Shown here: piece after piece, positions 6,565 through 49,633 of the stretch
Layout: every line of letters begins with the position of its first letter
Position numbering within the stretch: position 1 is the first letter of the stretch
NCBI GenBank assembly: GCA_035457005.1
Contig: DATICB010000008.1
Coordinates: forward strand, 1,013-65,012
Direction: 5' to 3'
Length of the DNA: 64,000 nt
DNA from: Patescibacteria group bacterium
Lineage (GTDB): Bacteria; Patescibacteriota; Microgenomatia; Levybacterales; UBA12049
Translations under genes and position numbers: made by a program
The notes under the pieces: model-generated
The model's database searches: none
The model's input: only the letters and a program-made list of their open reading frames with translations
What the model was told of the DNA's origin: nothing

Positions 6565-7326
6565 TTGCATAATGCTCGTATGCTTACCCTAATTCATGGA
6601 GACGATACCACTGCGAGTAGGAATTATTTTTTCGAAGAAAAACAGCACTATCCCGATGCTTTGCGAATTGAGGGAAGTGCAATTTCTCCAACAGATCTCC
6701 AACAATATATGTCTGGACAAGATTTATTTGGTCAAACAAAAGCCATTTTTATTGATACACTGATTTCCAAAAGGAAATCTCCAAAAGAAATAGCCCAGCT
6801 TATTGAAGTTATCAATCTTTCACCAGATACGCCTATTTTTTTATGGGAAAGCAAAGAGTTGACAAAAAAGCAAATTGAACTATTTAAAAAAATAACAGTG
6901 AAGCTTTTTAAAATTCCCTCAACTATTTTTGCACTTTTAGATGCACTGAAGCCAAACAATGGCCAAGTTTTATTAGATCTTTTCCATAAAACGCTTCTTG
7001 ATAAGGATGCAGAGTTTGTTTTGGTGATGCTTGAAAGACAGATAAGAATTTTGCTAGCGATCTGTGGTGTCATTCCTGCGAAGGCAGGAATCCAAAAAGA
7101 AGATAAAGAACCTGGATCCCTGATCAAGTCAGGGATGACAATAAGTGAGGTATCGCGCCTTGCTACTTGGCAAAAAGGCAAGCTGGAAAAGCAGGCAACA
7201 CTATTTACTGCTCAACAACTGCTTCAATTACATAATGCTTTGTTCCATTTGGAAAAAAATATGAAAACAGGAAATCTTTCTCTGCCGCTTGATAAGTCCA
7301 TTGATTTACTTCTCCTTTCGCTATAA
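6565..7326 (+). CDS. holA: DNA polymerase III delta subunit-like protein (HolA-like) carrying an in-frame repeat-element insertion
   Basis: N-term LTLIHGDDTTASRNYF resembles delta LLLGNDxLL; C-terminal domain-III-like segment; 73-bp palindromic element at 7068-7140 read through in frame. Confidence 0.45.
   Translation: MHNARMLTLIHGDDTTASRNYFFEEKQHYPDALRIEGSAISPTDLQQYMSGQDLFGQTKAIFIDTLISKRKSPKEIAQLIEVINLSPDTPIFLWESKELTKKQIELFKKITVKLFKIPSTIFALLDALKPNNGQVLLDLFHKTLLDKDAEFVLVMLERQIRILLAICGVIPAKAGIQKEDKEPGSLIKSGMTISEVSRLATWQKGKLEKQATLFTAQQLLQLHNALFHLEKNMKTGNLSLPLDKSIDLLLLSL
7068..7140 (-). mobile_element. MITE-like palindromic element, type I (two hairpins, TGTCAT...ATGACA termini), inverted orientation, inside CDS
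   Basis: TGTCATTCCTGCGAAGGCAGGAATCC...CCTGGATCCCTGATCAAGTCAGGGATGACA; both hairpins identical (as reverse complement) to copy at 49155-49218. Confidence 0.8.
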
Positions 7327-17364: not shown

Positions 17365-17601
17365 CTATCTACTTTCTTTCCCTTTTTCTGGTTGTTGTGA
17401 TCGTTGGGGGCCTCTATGCAGTTCTGCTTGCTCCTCTCGTGCTGCACTAACTGCGGGTAATTCAGCTGCTGTTCCTTTAGCTGCGTTTCTTCTTGCTACC
17501 TCTCTTGGATCACCAATACGGGGCAATTGCTTAATCATAATAGTAAGAATTTTACCAAAACAAGAACTTGGAGACAAGATGCTAGATAAAGCGGCGGACA
17601 A
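17365..17601 (-). CDS. hypothetical small ORF overlapping lexA 3' end
   Basis: 78-aa ORF in GC-richer patch; overlaps LexA stop by 20 nt; weak. Confidence 0.15.
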   Translation of the reverse strand: MSAALSSILSPSSCFGKILTIMIKQLPRIGDPREVARRNAAKGTAAELPAVSAAREEQAELHRGPQRSQQPEKGKESR

Positions 17602-18211
17602 GTCCGACCACTCTTCCCTGAATGGTAAGTCGTGTTGGGTAAATTGGCTGCATTGTAGAATTTGCTGGTTTTAATACAACTTGTCCTTGCTCGTTATAAT
17701 ACTTTTTAAGTGTTGCCAAATTGTCATCGACTAGCGCAACCACAATATCGCCATTGTGCACTTCTTTTTCTTTTTCTATCACCACATAGTCGCCATCTAA
17801 AATACCATCTTCAATAAGCGACTCTCCTTTTACCTGCAAAACATATGCTGTTTTTTGTCCAGAAATCATGCTTGCCGAAACTTGAAATGTTGCATTTGGG
17901 TCTGTGTGTGGCTCTAAAGGCTTGCCTGCTGCAATGAATCCCATAAGGGGTAATTCTATCGACACTGTATTGCCCCGCATAGTGCTATTGATTTTCTCAT
18001 CAATAACTTTCAAAACGCGTGCATTGCCTTCTACTTTTTGGATATATCCCTTGTCTACTAATGATGCAATAAGTGAATGCACAGTAGAATTGGCTCTGTG
18101 CCCTGTTGCTTGAGCAATTTCGGTGAGTGTAGGGGAATACCCATACTGATTTTGAAATTGAACAATAAATTCTAAGACTTCTCTTTCTTTTCTGTAGACT
18201 ACTCCTGGCAT
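17582..18211 (-). CDS. lexA: LexA-like repressor (wHTH + S24 peptidase), paralog 1
   Basis: N-term aligns with LexA wHTH (REVLEFIVQF...TLTEIAQATGH), S24 motif GESL...K; start set at MPGVVY (18211) by alignment to LexA; tool ORF extends to 18286. Confidence 0.75.
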   Translation of the reverse strand: MPGVVYRKEREVLEFIVQFQNQYGYSPTLTEIAQATGHRANSTVHSLIASLVDKGYIQKVEGNARVLKVIDEKINSTMRGNTVSIELPLMGFIAAGKPLEPHTDPNATFQVSASMISGQKTAYVLQVKGESLIEDGILDGDYVVIEKEKEVHNGDIVVALVDDNLATLKKYYNEQGQVVLKPANSTMQPIYPTRLTIQGRVVGLVRRFI

Positions 18212-18221
18212 AGTATTATAA

Positions 18222-18234
18222 TCGAATATTTCGA
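18222..18234. promoter_or_regulatory. candidate LexA-1 operator: dyad TCGAA-N3-TTCGA
   Basis: TCGAATATTTCGA with perfect 5-bp arms, 11-23 nt upstream of lexA start, between TTGACA and TATAAT hexamers on the lexA strand; resembles Cheo box CGAAC-N4-GTTCG. Confidence 0.4.
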
Positions 18235-18312
18235 GTATTTTTGTCAACCGATCGTATGTTATCTTTTTATAAGCAAACATGATCAACTATGTGTTTTATG
18301 GTAAAATACTAT

Positions 18313-18339
18313 TGTCATTGCGAACGAAGTGAAGCAATC
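18313..18339 (+). repeat. palindromic element type II fragment (TGTCATTGCGA...GCAATC hairpin)
   Basis: TGTCATTGCGAACGAAGTGAAGCAATC; same head as full element at 46785-46860. Confidence 0.6.
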
Positions 18340-18344
18340 TCCAC

Positions 18345-18414
18345 TGTCATCCCGCACTTGATGCGGGATCCAGTTCCTTATTTATATAGATTCCTGATCA
18401 AGTCAGGAATGACA
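18345..18414 (+). mobile_element. MITE-like palindromic element type I in uvrB 5' region
   Basis: TGTCATCCCGCACTTGATGCGGGATCCAG...ATTCCTGATCAAGTCAGGAATGACA; two hairpins with compensatory stem changes relative to other copies; ends 5 nt before uvrB ATG. Confidence 0.8.
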
Positions 18415-18418
18415 TTAA

Positions 18419-20425
18419 ATGTATATGAAATTTCAACTCACATCAAAATTTAAGCCGTCCGGCGATCAGCCAGAGGCAATTAAAAAATTAACACAGGGCA
18501 TTGAAAAAAATGATAAACACCAAGTGCTCCTTGGTGTCACTGGTAGTGGCAAAACCTACACTATGGCCAACGTAATTCAAAATGTTCAAAAGCCAACACT
18601 CATTATTTCCCACAACAAAACACTAGCAGGTCAACTGTATCAGGAATTTAGAGAGTTTTTCCCTAACAACAGTGTCAATTATTTTGTGAGTTACTACGAT
18701 TACTATCAGCCAGAGGCGTACGTCCCAACAACAGATACGTACATTGAAAAAGAGGCAGAAATTAATGAAGAAATCGATAAATTACGACTTTCTGCAACAG
18801 CGAATCTTTTGACTCGAAAAGATGTCATTGTCATTGCCTCGGTAAGCTGCATCTACAATCTTGGCTCGCCTGTTGAGTATGGCAAATTTGTCTTAGAAAT
18901 GGCAAAAGGAATGAAAATCGAAAGCAGAGATATTTTGCTTCGACTCACAGATTTACAATATGAGCGAAATGAGTATGGATTTAAAAGGGGGTCATTTAGA
19001 GTGCGAGGAGAAAATATAGATGTTTTCCCAGCGTACATGGACCATGGTCTTCGGATTGATATACAAAATGGGAAAATAATTGGTCTTTCAGAGTTTGATC
19101 CACTAACTGGCGAAACAGTACAAATACTCAAAAATACCATTGTCTACCCTGCCAAACACTACATGACAGACCCTGCTTCTTACGGTGGTGTTTTCCCTCA
19201 GATTAAAAATGACATGGAAAAACGAGTAAAAGAGCTGACAAGCATGAATAAATTGGTTGAAGCACAAAGAATTAAACAACGGGTAAGTTACGACTTGGAA
19301 ATGATTAATGAAATTGGTTATGTGAATGGTATAGAAAACTACTCGAGATATTTTGATGGACGTGAGCCAGGCCAGCCACCATATACGTTGATTGATTATC
19401 TACAGGCATGCTCCAAAGACTGGTTGCTTCTTGTTGATGAATCGCACATTACTCTTCCTCAAATTCGAGGCATGTACAATGGTGATAGGGCGCGAAAAGA
19501 AACACTGATTGAATACGGTTTCCGCTTGCCATCTGCACTTGATAATAGACCGTTAAAATTTGAGGAATTTATGGGACGGGTCAATCAGGCAGTGTATGTG
19601 TCAGCAACCCCAGACGAATATGAATTATCTCTTTCCGGACAAGACAACATTGCCGAACAACTAATTCGTCCAACTGGCATTGTGGACCCGCAGGTAACAG
19701 TAAAACCAACAGAGGGGCAAATTACTGACCTTATTGCAGAAATTCAAAAAAGAGTTGCAAAAAAGCAGCGAGTCTTAGTAACAACCCTTACAAAAAAAAT
19801 GGCAGAAGAACTGTCTAATTATTTAGAGGAAGGAGGCATAAAAGTGGCATATCTTCACTCTGATATCGAGACAATTAATAGACAAGACATTTTAGATAAT
19901 TTACGAAAAGGTGAATACGACGTATTAGTTGGTATTAATTTATTGCGTGAGGGTATTGATTTGCCAGAAGTTACCTTGGTTGCAATTTTGGATGCAGACA
20001 AAGAAGGATTTCTGAGAAGTAAAACGTCACTCATTCAGACCATGGGAAGAGCTGCGCGAAATATAGACTCAGAAGTTATTTTATATGCAGACACCATGAC
20101 TGGGTCAATGAATGAGGCAATAAGAGAAGTAGAAAGACGAAGAGAGGCACAACTTGCGTACAATAAAAAGCATAATATTACTCCGACAACTATCGAAAAA
20201 GCAATTCGCGAAAGATTGTATGAAGAAGAGGAAGAAGAAGCAACCCATAGGTCCCGGCCAATTGATTTAGTTTTGGAATTAGCAGACAAAGATGTGCTTC
20301 TGCCAGATGAACGGGAGAAGGTTATTGGCAGGCTCAGACAAGAAATGAAAACAGCTGCAAAGAATTTAGATTTTGAAACAGCAGCACTCCTTCGAGATAG
20401 AATAAAACAATTGCAAAACAATTAG
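18419..20425 (+). CDS. uvrB: excinuclease ABC subunit B
   Basis: GDQPEAIKKL, helicase motifs, C-terminal UvrB/UvrC interaction domain; 668 aa. Confidence 0.9.
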   Translation: MYMKFQLTSKFKPSGDQPEAIKKLTQGIEKNDKHQVLLGVTGSGKTYTMANVIQNVQKPTLIISHNKTLAGQLYQEFREFFPNNSVNYFVSYYDYYQPEAYVPTTDTYIEKEAEINEEIDKLRLSATANLLTRKDVIVIASVSCIYNLGSPVEYGKFVLEMAKGMKIESRDILLRLTDLQYERNEYGFKRGSFRVRGENIDVFPAYMDHGLRIDIQNGKIIGLSEFDPLTGETVQILKNTIVYPAKHYMTDPASYGGVFPQIKNDMEKRVKELTSMNKLVEAQRIKQRVSYDLEMINEIGYVNGIENYSRYFDGREPGQPPYTLIDYLQACSKDWLLLVDESHITLPQIRGMYNGDRARKETLIEYGFRLPSALDNRPLKFEEFMGRVNQAVYVSATPDEYELSLSGQDNIAEQLIRPTGIVDPQVTVKPTEGQITDLIAEIQKRVAKKQRVLVTTLTKKMAEELSNYLEEGGIKVAYLHSDIETINRQDILDNLRKGEYDVLVGINLLREGIDLPEVTLVAILDADKEGFLRSKTSLIQTMGRAARNIDSEVILYADTMTGSMNEAIREVERRREAQLAYNKKHNITPTTIEKAIRERLYEEEEEEATHRSRPIDLVLELADKDVLLPDEREKVIGRLRQEMKTAAKNLDFETAALLRDRIKQLQNN

Positions 20426-30881: not shown

Positions 30882-30933
30882 TGTCATCCTGAACGAAGTG
30901 AAGGATATATTCTTCGTTTTACTCAGAATGACA
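30882..30933 (+). mobile_element. MITE-like palindromic element type III (TGTCATCCTGAACGAAG...CAGAATGACA)
   Basis: 52-bp imperfect palindrome with TGTCAT/ATGACA termini ending 6 nt before murT ATG; shares 17-mer TTCGTTTTACTCAGAAT with 44310 region. Confidence 0.75.
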
Positions 30934-44874: not shown

Positions 44875-44931
44875 TGTCATCCTGAGCAAAGCGAAGGATC
44901 TTATTGAGATTCCGGGTAAACCAGAATGACA
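44875..44931 (+). mobile_element. MITE-like palindromic element type III in atpF-atpH spacer
   Basis: TGTCATCCTGAGCAAAGCGAAGGATC...CCAGAATGACA, followed by two more ATGACA repeats the last of which supplies the atpH ATG. Confidence 0.75.
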
Positions 44932-46784: not shown

Positions 46785-46860
46785 TGTCATTGCGAGGAGC
46801 GAAGCGACCCGGCAATCTTGTTATGTAGATAAGATTGCTTCGTATTCGTTCGCAATGACA
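46785..46860 (+). mobile_element. MITE-like palindromic element type II (full length) in atpA-atpG spacer
   Basis: TGTCATTGCGAGGAGCGAAGCGACCCGG CAATCTT-gttatgtagat-AAGATTG cttcgtattcgt TCGCAATGACA; 11-bp terminal inverted repeat plus internal 7-bp hairpin. Confidence 0.8.
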
Positions 46861-46874
46861 TTTTATTATAAGAT

Positions 46875-49144
<2,270 letters not shown>

Positions 49145-49154
49145 ACGCTCTCCT

Positions 49155-49218
49155 TGTCATCCCTGACTTGATCAGGGATCCAGGAATATAATAGATTCCT
49201 GCCTTCGCAGGAATGACA
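49155..49218 (+). mobile_element. MITE-like palindromic element type I in atpD-atpC spacer
   Basis: TGTCATCCCTGACTTGATCAGGGATCCAG gaatataatag ATTCCTGCCTTCGCAGGAATGACA; ends 8 nt before atpC ATG. Confidence 0.85.
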
Positions 49219-49225
49219 AAATACT

Positions 49226-49633
49226 ATGCCATTACAACTCACCGTCGTAACTCCAGAAAAACAACTTCTCTCAGAAGAAGTAGATGAAATCATTGTCCCA
49301 ACAACCAGTGGCGAGCTGACCATCTTACCCCAACACGCCGCGCTTTTAGCCCAGCTTGTCCCAGGTGAGTTGGTTATTAAAAAAGGTAACAAAACAGATC
49401 ACTTAGTCGTAGTTGGCGGGTTTTTGGAAGTTGGCAAGAATACCGTGAGTATTTTGGCTGACTATGCAGTCCATGGCAAAGATATCTCTGAAGCTCAGGC
49501 TCAACAGGCAAAAGATAGAGCAGAAAAAGCAATGAAAGAGAAAAAATCAGATGTTGATTTTGCAACTGCCGAGGCAGAATTTAGAAGAGCAATTTTAGAG
49601 CTAAAAGTTGCGAAGCGTCAAAAAGGAATCTAG
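49226..49633 (+). CDS. atpC: F0F1 ATP synthase epsilon subunit
   Basis: 135 aa, beta-sandwich N-domain (LQLTVVTPEKQLLSEEVDEIIVPTTSGELTILPQHA) + helical C-term. Confidence 0.85.
   Translation: MPLQLTVVTPEKQLLSEEVDEIIVPTTSGELTILPQHAALLAQLVPGELVIKKGNKTDHLVVVGGFLEVGKNTVSILADYAVHGKDISEAQAQQAKDRAEKAMKEKKSDVDFATAEAEFRRAILELKVAKRQKGI

Follow-up and report, generated by a model that had tools for sequence, protein, structure and literature searches.

The Host Gene and Its Product

The window, by which we mean the entire 64-kb stretch of DNA analyzed, carries on its forward strand a holA-like coding sequence at 6580–7326, and inside this gene, at 7068–7140, lies a pair of short hairpins. Read from its ATG, the gene encodes 248 amino acids (the mechanically delimited ORF starts from a TTG at 6565), and the product is 100% identical to an NCBI protein from a Patescibacteria MAG, where it bears the tag VLB73_01680. 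The Pfam domain DNA_pol3_delta_C is recognized with an E value of 3.7e-7 and 30.6 bits for a cutoff of 27, the match falling into two stretches with the insert between them, and TIGR01128 (holA) matches at E = 7e-11 with 42 bits, under its cutoff of 80. The AF2 model computed from 47 orthologs reaches a mean pLDDT of 91.3. Its best Foldseek matches in the PDB are 8giy_A, 3zh9, and 1jr3_D, all of them delta subunits from Escherichia coli or Bacillus subtilis, followed by other clamp-loader subunits; the TM-scores are just 0.39–0.44 because the holA-like protein is shorter. A profile of the 47 orthologs also matches B. subtilis delta (3zh9), at E = 2.7e-7.

Compared with the three-domain delta of about 340 amino acids (domains I, II, and III, the collar), the family has a modal length of 228 amino acids. 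It is made up of an N-terminal alpha/beta domain and a C-terminal helical domain aligned to delta residues 215–331, and domain II appears to be largely absent. Pfam, the model, and Foldseek agree and support the identification of the ORF as a minimal DNA polymerase III delta subunit of Levybacteria-type Patescibacteria, the same kind of clamp-loader subunit that a first-pass annotation, made from the sequence alone, had proposed. That annotation had also considered that the ORF might be two genes, or a pseudogene split at the element. The ORF (6565/6580–7326) is uninterrupted, neither split nor visibly decayed, and the window protein has, on either side of the insert, every residue that does not vary in the 47-sequence ortholog alignment. 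Judging from the model, HolA with its insert most likely still works, in a predicted clamp-loader role.

Anatomy of the Hairpin Doublet

The doublet spans 73 nt on the forward strand and reads TGTCATTCCTGCGAAGGCAGGAATC, CAAAAAGAAGATAAAGAA, and CCTGGATCCCTGATCAAGTCAGGGATGACA for its left part, spacer, and right part, respectively; its translation forms residues 164–187 (VIPAKAGIQKEDKEPGSLIKSGMT). Module 1 (7068–7092) folds into a perfect 8-bp stem (ATTCCTGC/GCAGGAAT at 7072–7079 and 7084–7091) with the loop GAAG. It is followed by an A/G-rich spacer of 18 nt (7093–7110), which encodes QKEDKE, and by module 2 in inverted orientation (7111–7140), with a second perfect 8-bp stem (ATCCCTGA/TCAGGGAT at 7116–7123 and 7129–7136), the loop TCAAG, and a 3′ ATGACA. 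The ends of the doublet, TGTCAT…ATGACA, are terminal inverted repeats, and the arms GTCATTCCTG and GTCATCCCTG are alike. A 93-nt region folds more stably than its shuffled versions, both as RNA (−28.6 kcal/mol, z = −3.1) and as DNA (−15.9 kcal/mol, z = −4.2). In the predicted fold of the single-stranded region the two hairpins are separate and are joined only by a short closing GUCA/UGAC helix.

The frame of holA is the sole stop-free forward frame across 7068–7140. The scarcity of stop codons in this interval is not unusual, two of the six frames being open for a mean of 1.8 in shuffled sequences. An Rfam search of 6900–7300 returned no credible family, intron, or ribozyme. At the three sites whose flanks were inspected (holA, the second copy in the ATP synthase operon described below, and 18313), no direct repeats that could represent a target-site duplication were found: the elements are bordered by GTGG and ATAA, by TATTT and AGGAG, and by ACTAT and TTAAA, respectively.

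The Insert Occupies a Loop of the C-Terminal Helical Domain

The family profile aligns with the C-terminal domain of B. subtilis delta (residues 215–331) on both flanks of the insert, and the insert itself corresponds to a loop between two helices, equivalent to about B. subtilis delta residues 262–274. As residues 164–187 are those encoded by the element, it therefore lies within a loop of the C-terminal helical domain. This differs from the first-pass annotation, which had placed it between the N- and C-terminal domains; profile alignment and model both contradict that position. The accompanying suggestion that a structure model might reveal a surface loop proved sound, the insert coinciding with the sole low-confidence stretch of the model (pLDDT 54–66, residues about 161–190). 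The hydrophilic 28-residue replacement loop is probably disordered.

Relative to insert-free orthologs, in which the linker is 9 amino acids long, the 28-residue linker of the window protein represents a net gain of 19 residues. The first-pass figure of roughly 24 added residues is thus correct for the number of codons that the element contributes (24, residues 164–187), and exceeds the net gain. At the DNA level, the difference from the 27-nt linker of L085, the closest insert-free relative, whose empty site reads GCGCTACAAGACCCGTCCAAAGAGCAA, is +57 nt. Because the element measures 73 nt for a net gain of only 57 nt, the native linker is 16 nt short. The palindromic element described in the first-pass annotation is therefore real, with its two perfect 8-bp stems and its TGTCAT…ATGACA ends, and it is repeat-derived and keeps the reading frame open as claimed; what does not hold is a clean insertion of a 73-bp unit, given the net +57 nt, the 16 nt of missing linker, and a spacer unlike that of the copy described next.

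Related Modules in the Window

Both hairpin modules recur together on the minus strand at 49154–49218, where they fill the intergenic gap between the Pfam-confirmed ATP synthase genes atpD (beta subunit, 47732–49144) and atpC (epsilon subunit, 49226–49633). Module 1 at 7068–7092 is 100% identical over 25 nt to 49194–49218, and module 2 is 100% identical over 31 nt to 49154–49184, in accordance with the identity of both hairpins reported in the first-pass annotation; no match of this kind arose in 100 shuffles. The spacers are unrelated in sequence and differ in length (18 nt in holA vs. 9 nt in the atp copy), and the two copies are therefore not 73-bp duplicates of each other.

Twelve units with the organization GTCAT-stem-loop-stem-ATC were found in the 64 kb, at six sites, and the (T)GTCAT flank is present in every one of them. 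Five of the six sites are intergenic; holA, with its units at 7069–7139, is the only intragenic site of the window. A cluster of three related modules in orientations +, +, and − (18314–18413) occupies the spacer between the divergent lexA and uvrB genes, and a convergent doublet of two other module types (30883–30932) lies between an M48 peptidase gene and murT. The three remaining sites are spacers of the atp operon: a convergent doublet between atpF and the next atp gene (44876–44930), a lone module on the minus strand between atpA and atpG (46832–46859), and the atpD-atpC copy (units at 49156–49217). In all, the window holds four convergent doublets and one triplet, of mixed module types and with spacers of 0–18 nt. 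No transposase or RAYT (Y1/HUH) was detected with Pfam among the 34 ORFs scanned in the 64-kb window.

Diversity of Inserts at the holA Linker

We assembled a set of 97 homologs, mostly from Levybacteria and with a modal length of 228–230 amino acids; as they were obtained through predicted proteins, the set is biased toward intact reading frames. The linker, delimited by the motifs RxLL and I(S/D)E, has a modal length of 9 amino acids, found in 44 of 89 proteins. The extra segment is thus absent from most orthologs, as expected by the first-pass annotation, which had proposed such an alignment as a check. Longer linkers are present in about 30 orthologs, about 20 of which display peptide signatures of hairpin modules, and we recovered the DNA of 11 of them. 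In the 47-sequence alignment, no comparable insertion was found elsewhere in holA.

Four orthologs from independent assemblies, L081–L084, with 55–64% amino acid identity to the window protein, carry the same two module types in the same linker. Other hairpin types occupy the linker in about fifteen further orthologs. L086 has one hairpin of a different type and L087 has two. L209 and L210, whose proteins are only 50% identical, have in common both a hairpin of a third type, the same in all 27 nt, and the junction at which it lies, and L211, the sister of L210 (79% amino acid identity), has different hairpins at the junction used in L210. A fourth type is found in L032, and palindromes without GTCAT are found in L001 and L068. 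Altogether, at least seven hairpin types, at least five junctions, and all three reading frames are represented at this linker, the left junctions lying 6, 11/12, 13, 15, or 23 nt after the LL codons. In a neighbor-joining (NJ) tree, the insert-bearing orthologs are scattered among the insert-free ones.

We also considered whether the 9-residue linkers might be cryptic, decayed hairpins. This was rejected, since stems of at least 5 bp occur in 10% of 68 short linkers vs. 16% of control windows, that is, without enrichment.

The Hairpins, Not the Peptide, Are Conserved

The coding DNA flanking the insert is only 57–64% identical among the insert-bearing orthologs, and third codon positions, at 34–46% identity, are effectively saturated. 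Against this background, hairpin 1 of the window differs from that of L083 at 1 of 26 nt, and the hairpin-2 stems of L081–L084 are perfectly paired and do not differ from one another at any synonymous site, their loops being variable. Between the window and these four orthologs, the stem of hairpin 2 shows a compensatory pair change from T:A to G:C. Hairpin 1 has decayed in L082 and L084.

For an analysis of covariation, 19 hairpins were chosen by flank and loop only, pairing being ignored. Eighteen of them are perfectly paired, through 12 different stems, and 99% of cells are paired. Double compensatory changes affect all six of the eight stem pairs that vary, and the observed values were reached in none of 500 shuffles. 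As the stems stay perfect through compensatory changes and third positions are saturated, conservation resides in the nucleic acid and not in the peptide. The first-pass annotation had held that a segment shared with orthologs as conserved protein sequence would speak against an origin from the element. Four orthologs do share the segment, not as conserved protein sequence; the element-derived reading stands because what is shared is conserved as nucleic acid hairpins, with perfect stems, compensatory changes, and decayed copies. Template-switch correction of quasi-palindromes can keep palindromes perfect without selection.

Spread of the Module beyond holA

At least 120 JGI metagenome contigs, with a GC content ranging from 0.20 to 0.65, contain the exact 25-mer of hairpin 1. 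Among the 135 copies listed, 127 are not inside long ORFs and 8 (about 6%) are part of an open span that extends, without a stop, for at least 60 codons in both directions; most copies are intergenic and paired with an inverted partner 10–45 nt away. The genes of one contig cluster with proteins from Aminicenantes or Desulfobacteraceae MAGs, and the module is therefore not specific to the candidate phyla radiation. Hairpin 1 lies in frame in genes for KsgA, RNase R, the RNase P protein (RnpA), and a Wzy-type ligase (Wzy_C), and Pfam domains span or adjoin the insert in these four proteins as well as in Cas6 and methylmalonyl-CoA mutase. Judged from these sequences, tolerance of translated hairpin modules appears to be general across host genes.

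Paired hairpins might have been the ends of insertion sequences. We rejected this possibility for the three contigs in which the bracketed interval was inspected (L164, L090, and L103): they bracket ordinary genes, and no transposase was found between them. In L090, the two copies have an identical hairpin 1 and spacer, and their hairpin-2 stems differ at three paired positions.

Origin of the holA Insert

We consider it likely that the insert is a mosaic, REP-like GTCAT doublet translated as a tolerated loop of HolA, acquired long ago and with hairpins that have been kept perfect or homogenized. Each module consists of about 25 nt, with a conserved GTCAT flank and a stem of 8 bp, and the two face each other in a BIME- or REPIN-like arrangement. 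In the window genome, such modules normally fill intergenic gaps, the copy in holA sitting in a surface loop of variable length. The element would be transcribed and translated with holA, a predicted loop of 28 amino acids replacing the 9-residue linker. Because the remaining fold and the family-invariant residues are intact, we regard the insert as tolerated rather than needed. It would be old and common by descent with the inserts of several orthologs, and its hairpins would have been kept perfect, and in the window genome matched to dispersed copies, by processes acting on DNA; candidates are gene conversion between copies, template-switch correction, and selection on the hairpin by whatever protein mobilizes it. 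In many lineages, loss or replacement of the insert would have followed.

Evidence for common descent comes from L081–L084. Their hairpin 2 has a 6-nt loop which, among more than 200 ATGAC-flanked hairpins in 1.58 Mb, is found elsewhere only in L173, the usual loop of this module family being the 5-nt TCAAG (18 hairpins). Sharing of so rare a loop argues for a single event at the origin of these four inserts. The spacer of the window doublet resembles the spacers of L081 and L082, and not that of its own atp copy; with L082 it shares 11 of 16 nt when right-aligned, in an A/G-rich stretch, a weak likeness to the orthologous inserts that is at most suggestive. The length of the window hairpin-2 tract (30 nt) equals that of the tract it would have replaced, and such a replacement preserves the frame. 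As a counterpoint, the in-frame state requires that 16 nt of native linker be gone, 73 nt not being a multiple of three. We also examined the idea that the two hairpins were inserted separately, on either side of native linker that now forms the spacer. The Q…KE pattern of the window, L081, and L082 fits this idea; it is contradicted by L083, in which a full native-like linker is kept upstream of the doublet.

A single ancestral insertion would need many losses, given the scattered distribution of the inserts in the NJ tree, and the differences among orthologs in left (+11/+23 nt) and right (0/+6 nt) junctions make several independent insertions possible. These observations bear on an alternative that we hold to be unlikely as an explanation of the window insert, namely recent targeted transposition: the holA linker would be a hot spot receiving doublets or single hairpins from a genomic copy, and the orthologous inserts would be independent of one another. 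The 100% identity of the window hairpins with the atp copy fits such a history, as do the many hairpin types, junctions, and frames at a single linker, the identical hairpin and junction of the distant L209 and L210, the different hairpins at one junction in the sisters L210 and L211, and the scatter of insert-bearing orthologs. In addition, L083 and L087 (about 20 kb each) have units only in holA. A scan of about 885 kb from Levybacteria, which includes the window and loci chosen for their holA inserts, yielded 25 units under strict criteria vs. 10 in shuffled sequence, and of about nine strict units in unselected, genome-representative loci, one lies in the 30-nt holA linker. A looser scan (GTCAT and a stem of at least 6 bp with at most one mismatch) was dropped, as it returned 114 units vs. 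127 in shuffled sequence. However, the holA doublet and the atp copy have unrelated spacers, so that the insert is not a fresh copy of the atp unit; the 6-nt loop of L081–L084 points to a shared origin of these four inserts at least; the sequences preceding the 135 listed copies, on their upstream side, show no evident target motif; and neither a target-site duplication (at the three flanked sites) nor a transposase (in the 34 window ORFs) was found.

Old insertion with homogenization and repeated recent insertion may both apply. A possible, if doubtful, extension is that the loop-coding stretch of holA in Levybacteria is a persistent "landing pad" at which 25-nt GTCAT modules, members of a family that crosses phyla, are time and again inserted, exchanged for one another, and mended by DNA-level processes. 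If true, this would imply a targeting mechanism, or gene conversion from copy to copy, inside an essential coding sequence, and GTCAT modules would routinely be translated as parts of many proteins throughout the bacteria.

A selected function seems improbable to us, whether the hairpins act on holA mRNA or DNA (through pausing, processing, stability, or protein binding) or the loop serves the clamp loader. It would account for the perfect stems kept in several deeply diverged orthologs next to saturated synonymous sites, for the strong stem covariation across the hairpin family, and for the repeated occupation of the linker. Yet most orthologs, with their 9-residue linker, manage without a hairpin (with the stem frequencies of 10% vs. 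16% given above), hairpin 1 has decayed in L082 and L084, and hairpin types, positions, and frames vary among orthologs, so that no common peptide or structure is conserved. Moreover, the same modules occur at unrelated intergenic sites and in unrelated genes, and template-switch correction, as is well established, can maintain perfect palindromes in the absence of selection. Lastly, it is hardly credible that a repeat was misassembled into holA, that the gene is broken or split, or that the insert is excised ahead of translation. The sequence comes from a MAG assembled from short reads, in which repeats are known to give rise to chimeric joins, and the window protein is known from one contig. 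But homologous inserts occur at the same codon-level position in four independent assemblies from other samples (L081–L084), a unique forward frame is open through the element, both flanks fold confidently and keep all family-invariant residues, decayed copies such as that of L082 have kept the frame, as would be expected only of a translated segment, and Rfam shows no intron or ribozyme match.

Relationship to Known Repeat Families

The first-pass annotation had likened the insert to the Rickettsia palindromic elements (RPEs), and the comparison is apt. RPEs are about 100–150 bp long and confined to Rickettsia; each family encodes a conserved peptide, and nearly half of the copies lie in ORFs, according to the work of Ogata et al. 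(2000/2002) as summarized in PMC10969869. RPEs resemble the holA insert in being palindromes that are located both in intergenic DNA and, in frame, in unrelated coding genes, which are often essential; in being translated as an extra segment in a surface loop that leaves the host fold intact; and in that some insertions are old and common to orthologs and copies decay over time (PMC10969869). Like RPEs, the GTCAT modules lie in frame in coding genes with the fold undisturbed (holA as well as the genes for KsgA, RNase R, RnpA, and Wzy_C). Unlike RPEs, the holA unit is a 25-nt module arranged in mosaic doublets of 50–75 nt, the frames differ between genes, only about 6% of the listed metagenome copies are intragenic, and the same module is found in very different bacteria. 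By its size (73 nt, with modules of 25–30 nt) and its Patescibacteria host, the insert is set apart from the RPE family. The label "type I element" used in the first-pass annotation is likewise too narrow, the units being mosaics of 25-nt modules that belong to a cross-phylum family.

In structure, the modules are more reminiscent of REP, BIME, and REPIN sequences. They share with these their nature as short imperfect palindromes of 20–40 nt with a conserved 5′ flank, present in multiple copies, mostly extragenic and often within operons; the inverted pairs with variable spacers and mosaic hairpin types known from E. coli BIMEs; and the lack of a target-site duplication together with stems kept by compensatory changes (PMC3116915, PMC3337134). 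They differ in several respects. The flank is GTCAT instead of the GTAG of REP. The two members of a GTCAT pair are different hairpins that fold separately and do not pair with each other as in REPINs, and the spacer of the doublet is not conserved between copies, whereas that of REPINs, which replicate as doublets, is. No RAYT, the cognate transposase of such repeats, was identified among the 34 window ORFs, and the holA copy is intragenic and, as predicted, translated.

MITEs such as ERIC, Correia/NEMIS, Nezha, and QMITE1 have in common with the doublet terminal inverted repeats, a non-autonomous nature, RNA folding, and occasional in-frame fusions (PMC10969869, PMC5896051). The GTCAT doublet is much smaller and without target-site duplication, and no related insertion sequence was found in the three bracketed contigs. 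QMITE1 and QMITE2 of Coxiella (150–400 bp) were considered as a match and set aside as unrelated in size and structure. Template switching at quasi-palindromes would explain perfect stems and coordinated two-sided changes, of which L090 offers an example. It is a mutational process and not a family of elements, however, and leaves dispersal, the GTCAT flank, and the loops unexplained. No description of the GTCAT hairpin family came up in the searchable literature, an absence that is no proof of novelty. By analogy, then, the holA insert is closest to RPEs in its behavior and closest to REP, BIME, and REPIN sequences in its anatomy.

Implications

The in-frame loop that the window encodes within a minimal delta subunit is thus real and derived from a repeat, and the subunit itself, as modeled, is apparently functional. 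In-frame "selfish" palindromes in essential genes are usually seen as a peculiarity of Rickettsia. The holA case presents the same phenomenon in the candidate phyla radiation and in a replisome subunit, with a much smaller and far more widespread module, and it identifies a permissive loop in the minimal delta subunit. It also calls for caution in annotating predicted proteins, in which VIPAKAGIQ, SFLRKQES, WIPAFAGMT, and similar peptides are repeat-derived. Across a phylum, the 30-nt loop-coding stretch of holA shows many hairpin states, whether independent or converted, and it provides a concrete system for studying the entry of short structured repeats into coding DNA and their persistence.

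Minimal Delta Subunit and Its Orthologs

The DNA polymerase III delta subunit of Levybacteria is short: across the holA-like CDS of the window (6580–7326) and its orthologs (protein homologs P0001–P0097), the modal length is 228 aa, compared with ~340 aa in Escherichia coli and Bacillus subtilis. An N-terminal alpha/beta domain is followed by a helical C-terminal one, whereas domain II seems largely absent. The ortholog in the Levyibacteriota MAG nzgw402 (locus L039) has an in-frame stop codon immediately upstream of the linker, at about 1830–1840 (…MLIRQV*LFLGIV…); sequencing error, pseudogene, and recoding are all candidate explanations. Directly past the 73-nt insert, residues 188–210 (window 7141–7210; ISEVSRLA.WQKGKLEKQA.LF) matched the villin-headpiece-like domain of PDB 1ujs in a profile search (E = 0.0018), probably a chance likeness of a short helical motif.

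GTCAT Hairpin Modules Elsewhere in the Window

Hairpin modules occupy three intergenic junctions of the atp operon: between atpF and the next gene (44876–44930), between atpA and atpG (46832–46859), and between atpD and atpC (49156–49217). REP and BIME sequences likewise sit inside operons. The divergent spacer between lexA (17582–18286, minus strand) and uvrB (18419–20425, plus strand) is nearly filled by three GTCAT hairpin modules (18314–18413), which leave scant space for the promoters and the LexA box expected there.

Hairpin 1 as a Building Block

Beyond the window, the 25-nt hairpin 1 is nested in longer conserved repeats in some groups of contigs (L094, L102, L130, L135, L147, L187, and L196; also L103, L150, and L157), for example ATTGCCTGA…hairpin…CGGCAAT…TTTAACTGTAATTGGTAT. 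The module is thus a building block of several distinct larger repeat families. It also crosses phylum boundaries: the exact 25-mer flanks an outer-membrane-protein gene in JGI contig Ga0209979_1000344 (L164), where a neighboring protein clusters at ≥90% identity with proteins of Aminicenantes or Desulfobacteraceae MAGs. A 7-kb contig of 20% GC (L129) carries hairpin 1 at both ends in inverted orientation (52–76 and 6943–6967), with more than 80 nt of identical flank around both copies; either a linear element bounded by terminal inverted repeats or a fold-back in the assembly could account for this.

Two doublets are present in a single contig, L090 (15–80 and 1824–1890), with the same hairpin 1 and the same 16-nt spacer. 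In hairpin 2, three stem positions are changed on each arm (CCAAA/TTTGG in one doublet, CCGCA/TGCGG in the other). Three coordinated compensatory changes and nothing else thus separate the two, a pattern that suggests either swapped modules or correction by template switching.

Antisense ORF through the Element

On the minus strand, a 149-aa antisense ORF (window 6732–7181; …VIPDLIRDPGSLSSFWIPAFAGMT…) crosses the 73-nt element in holA. Almost certainly spurious, it illustrates how hairpin repeats yield "hypothetical proteins" with WIPAFAGMT-type motifs.
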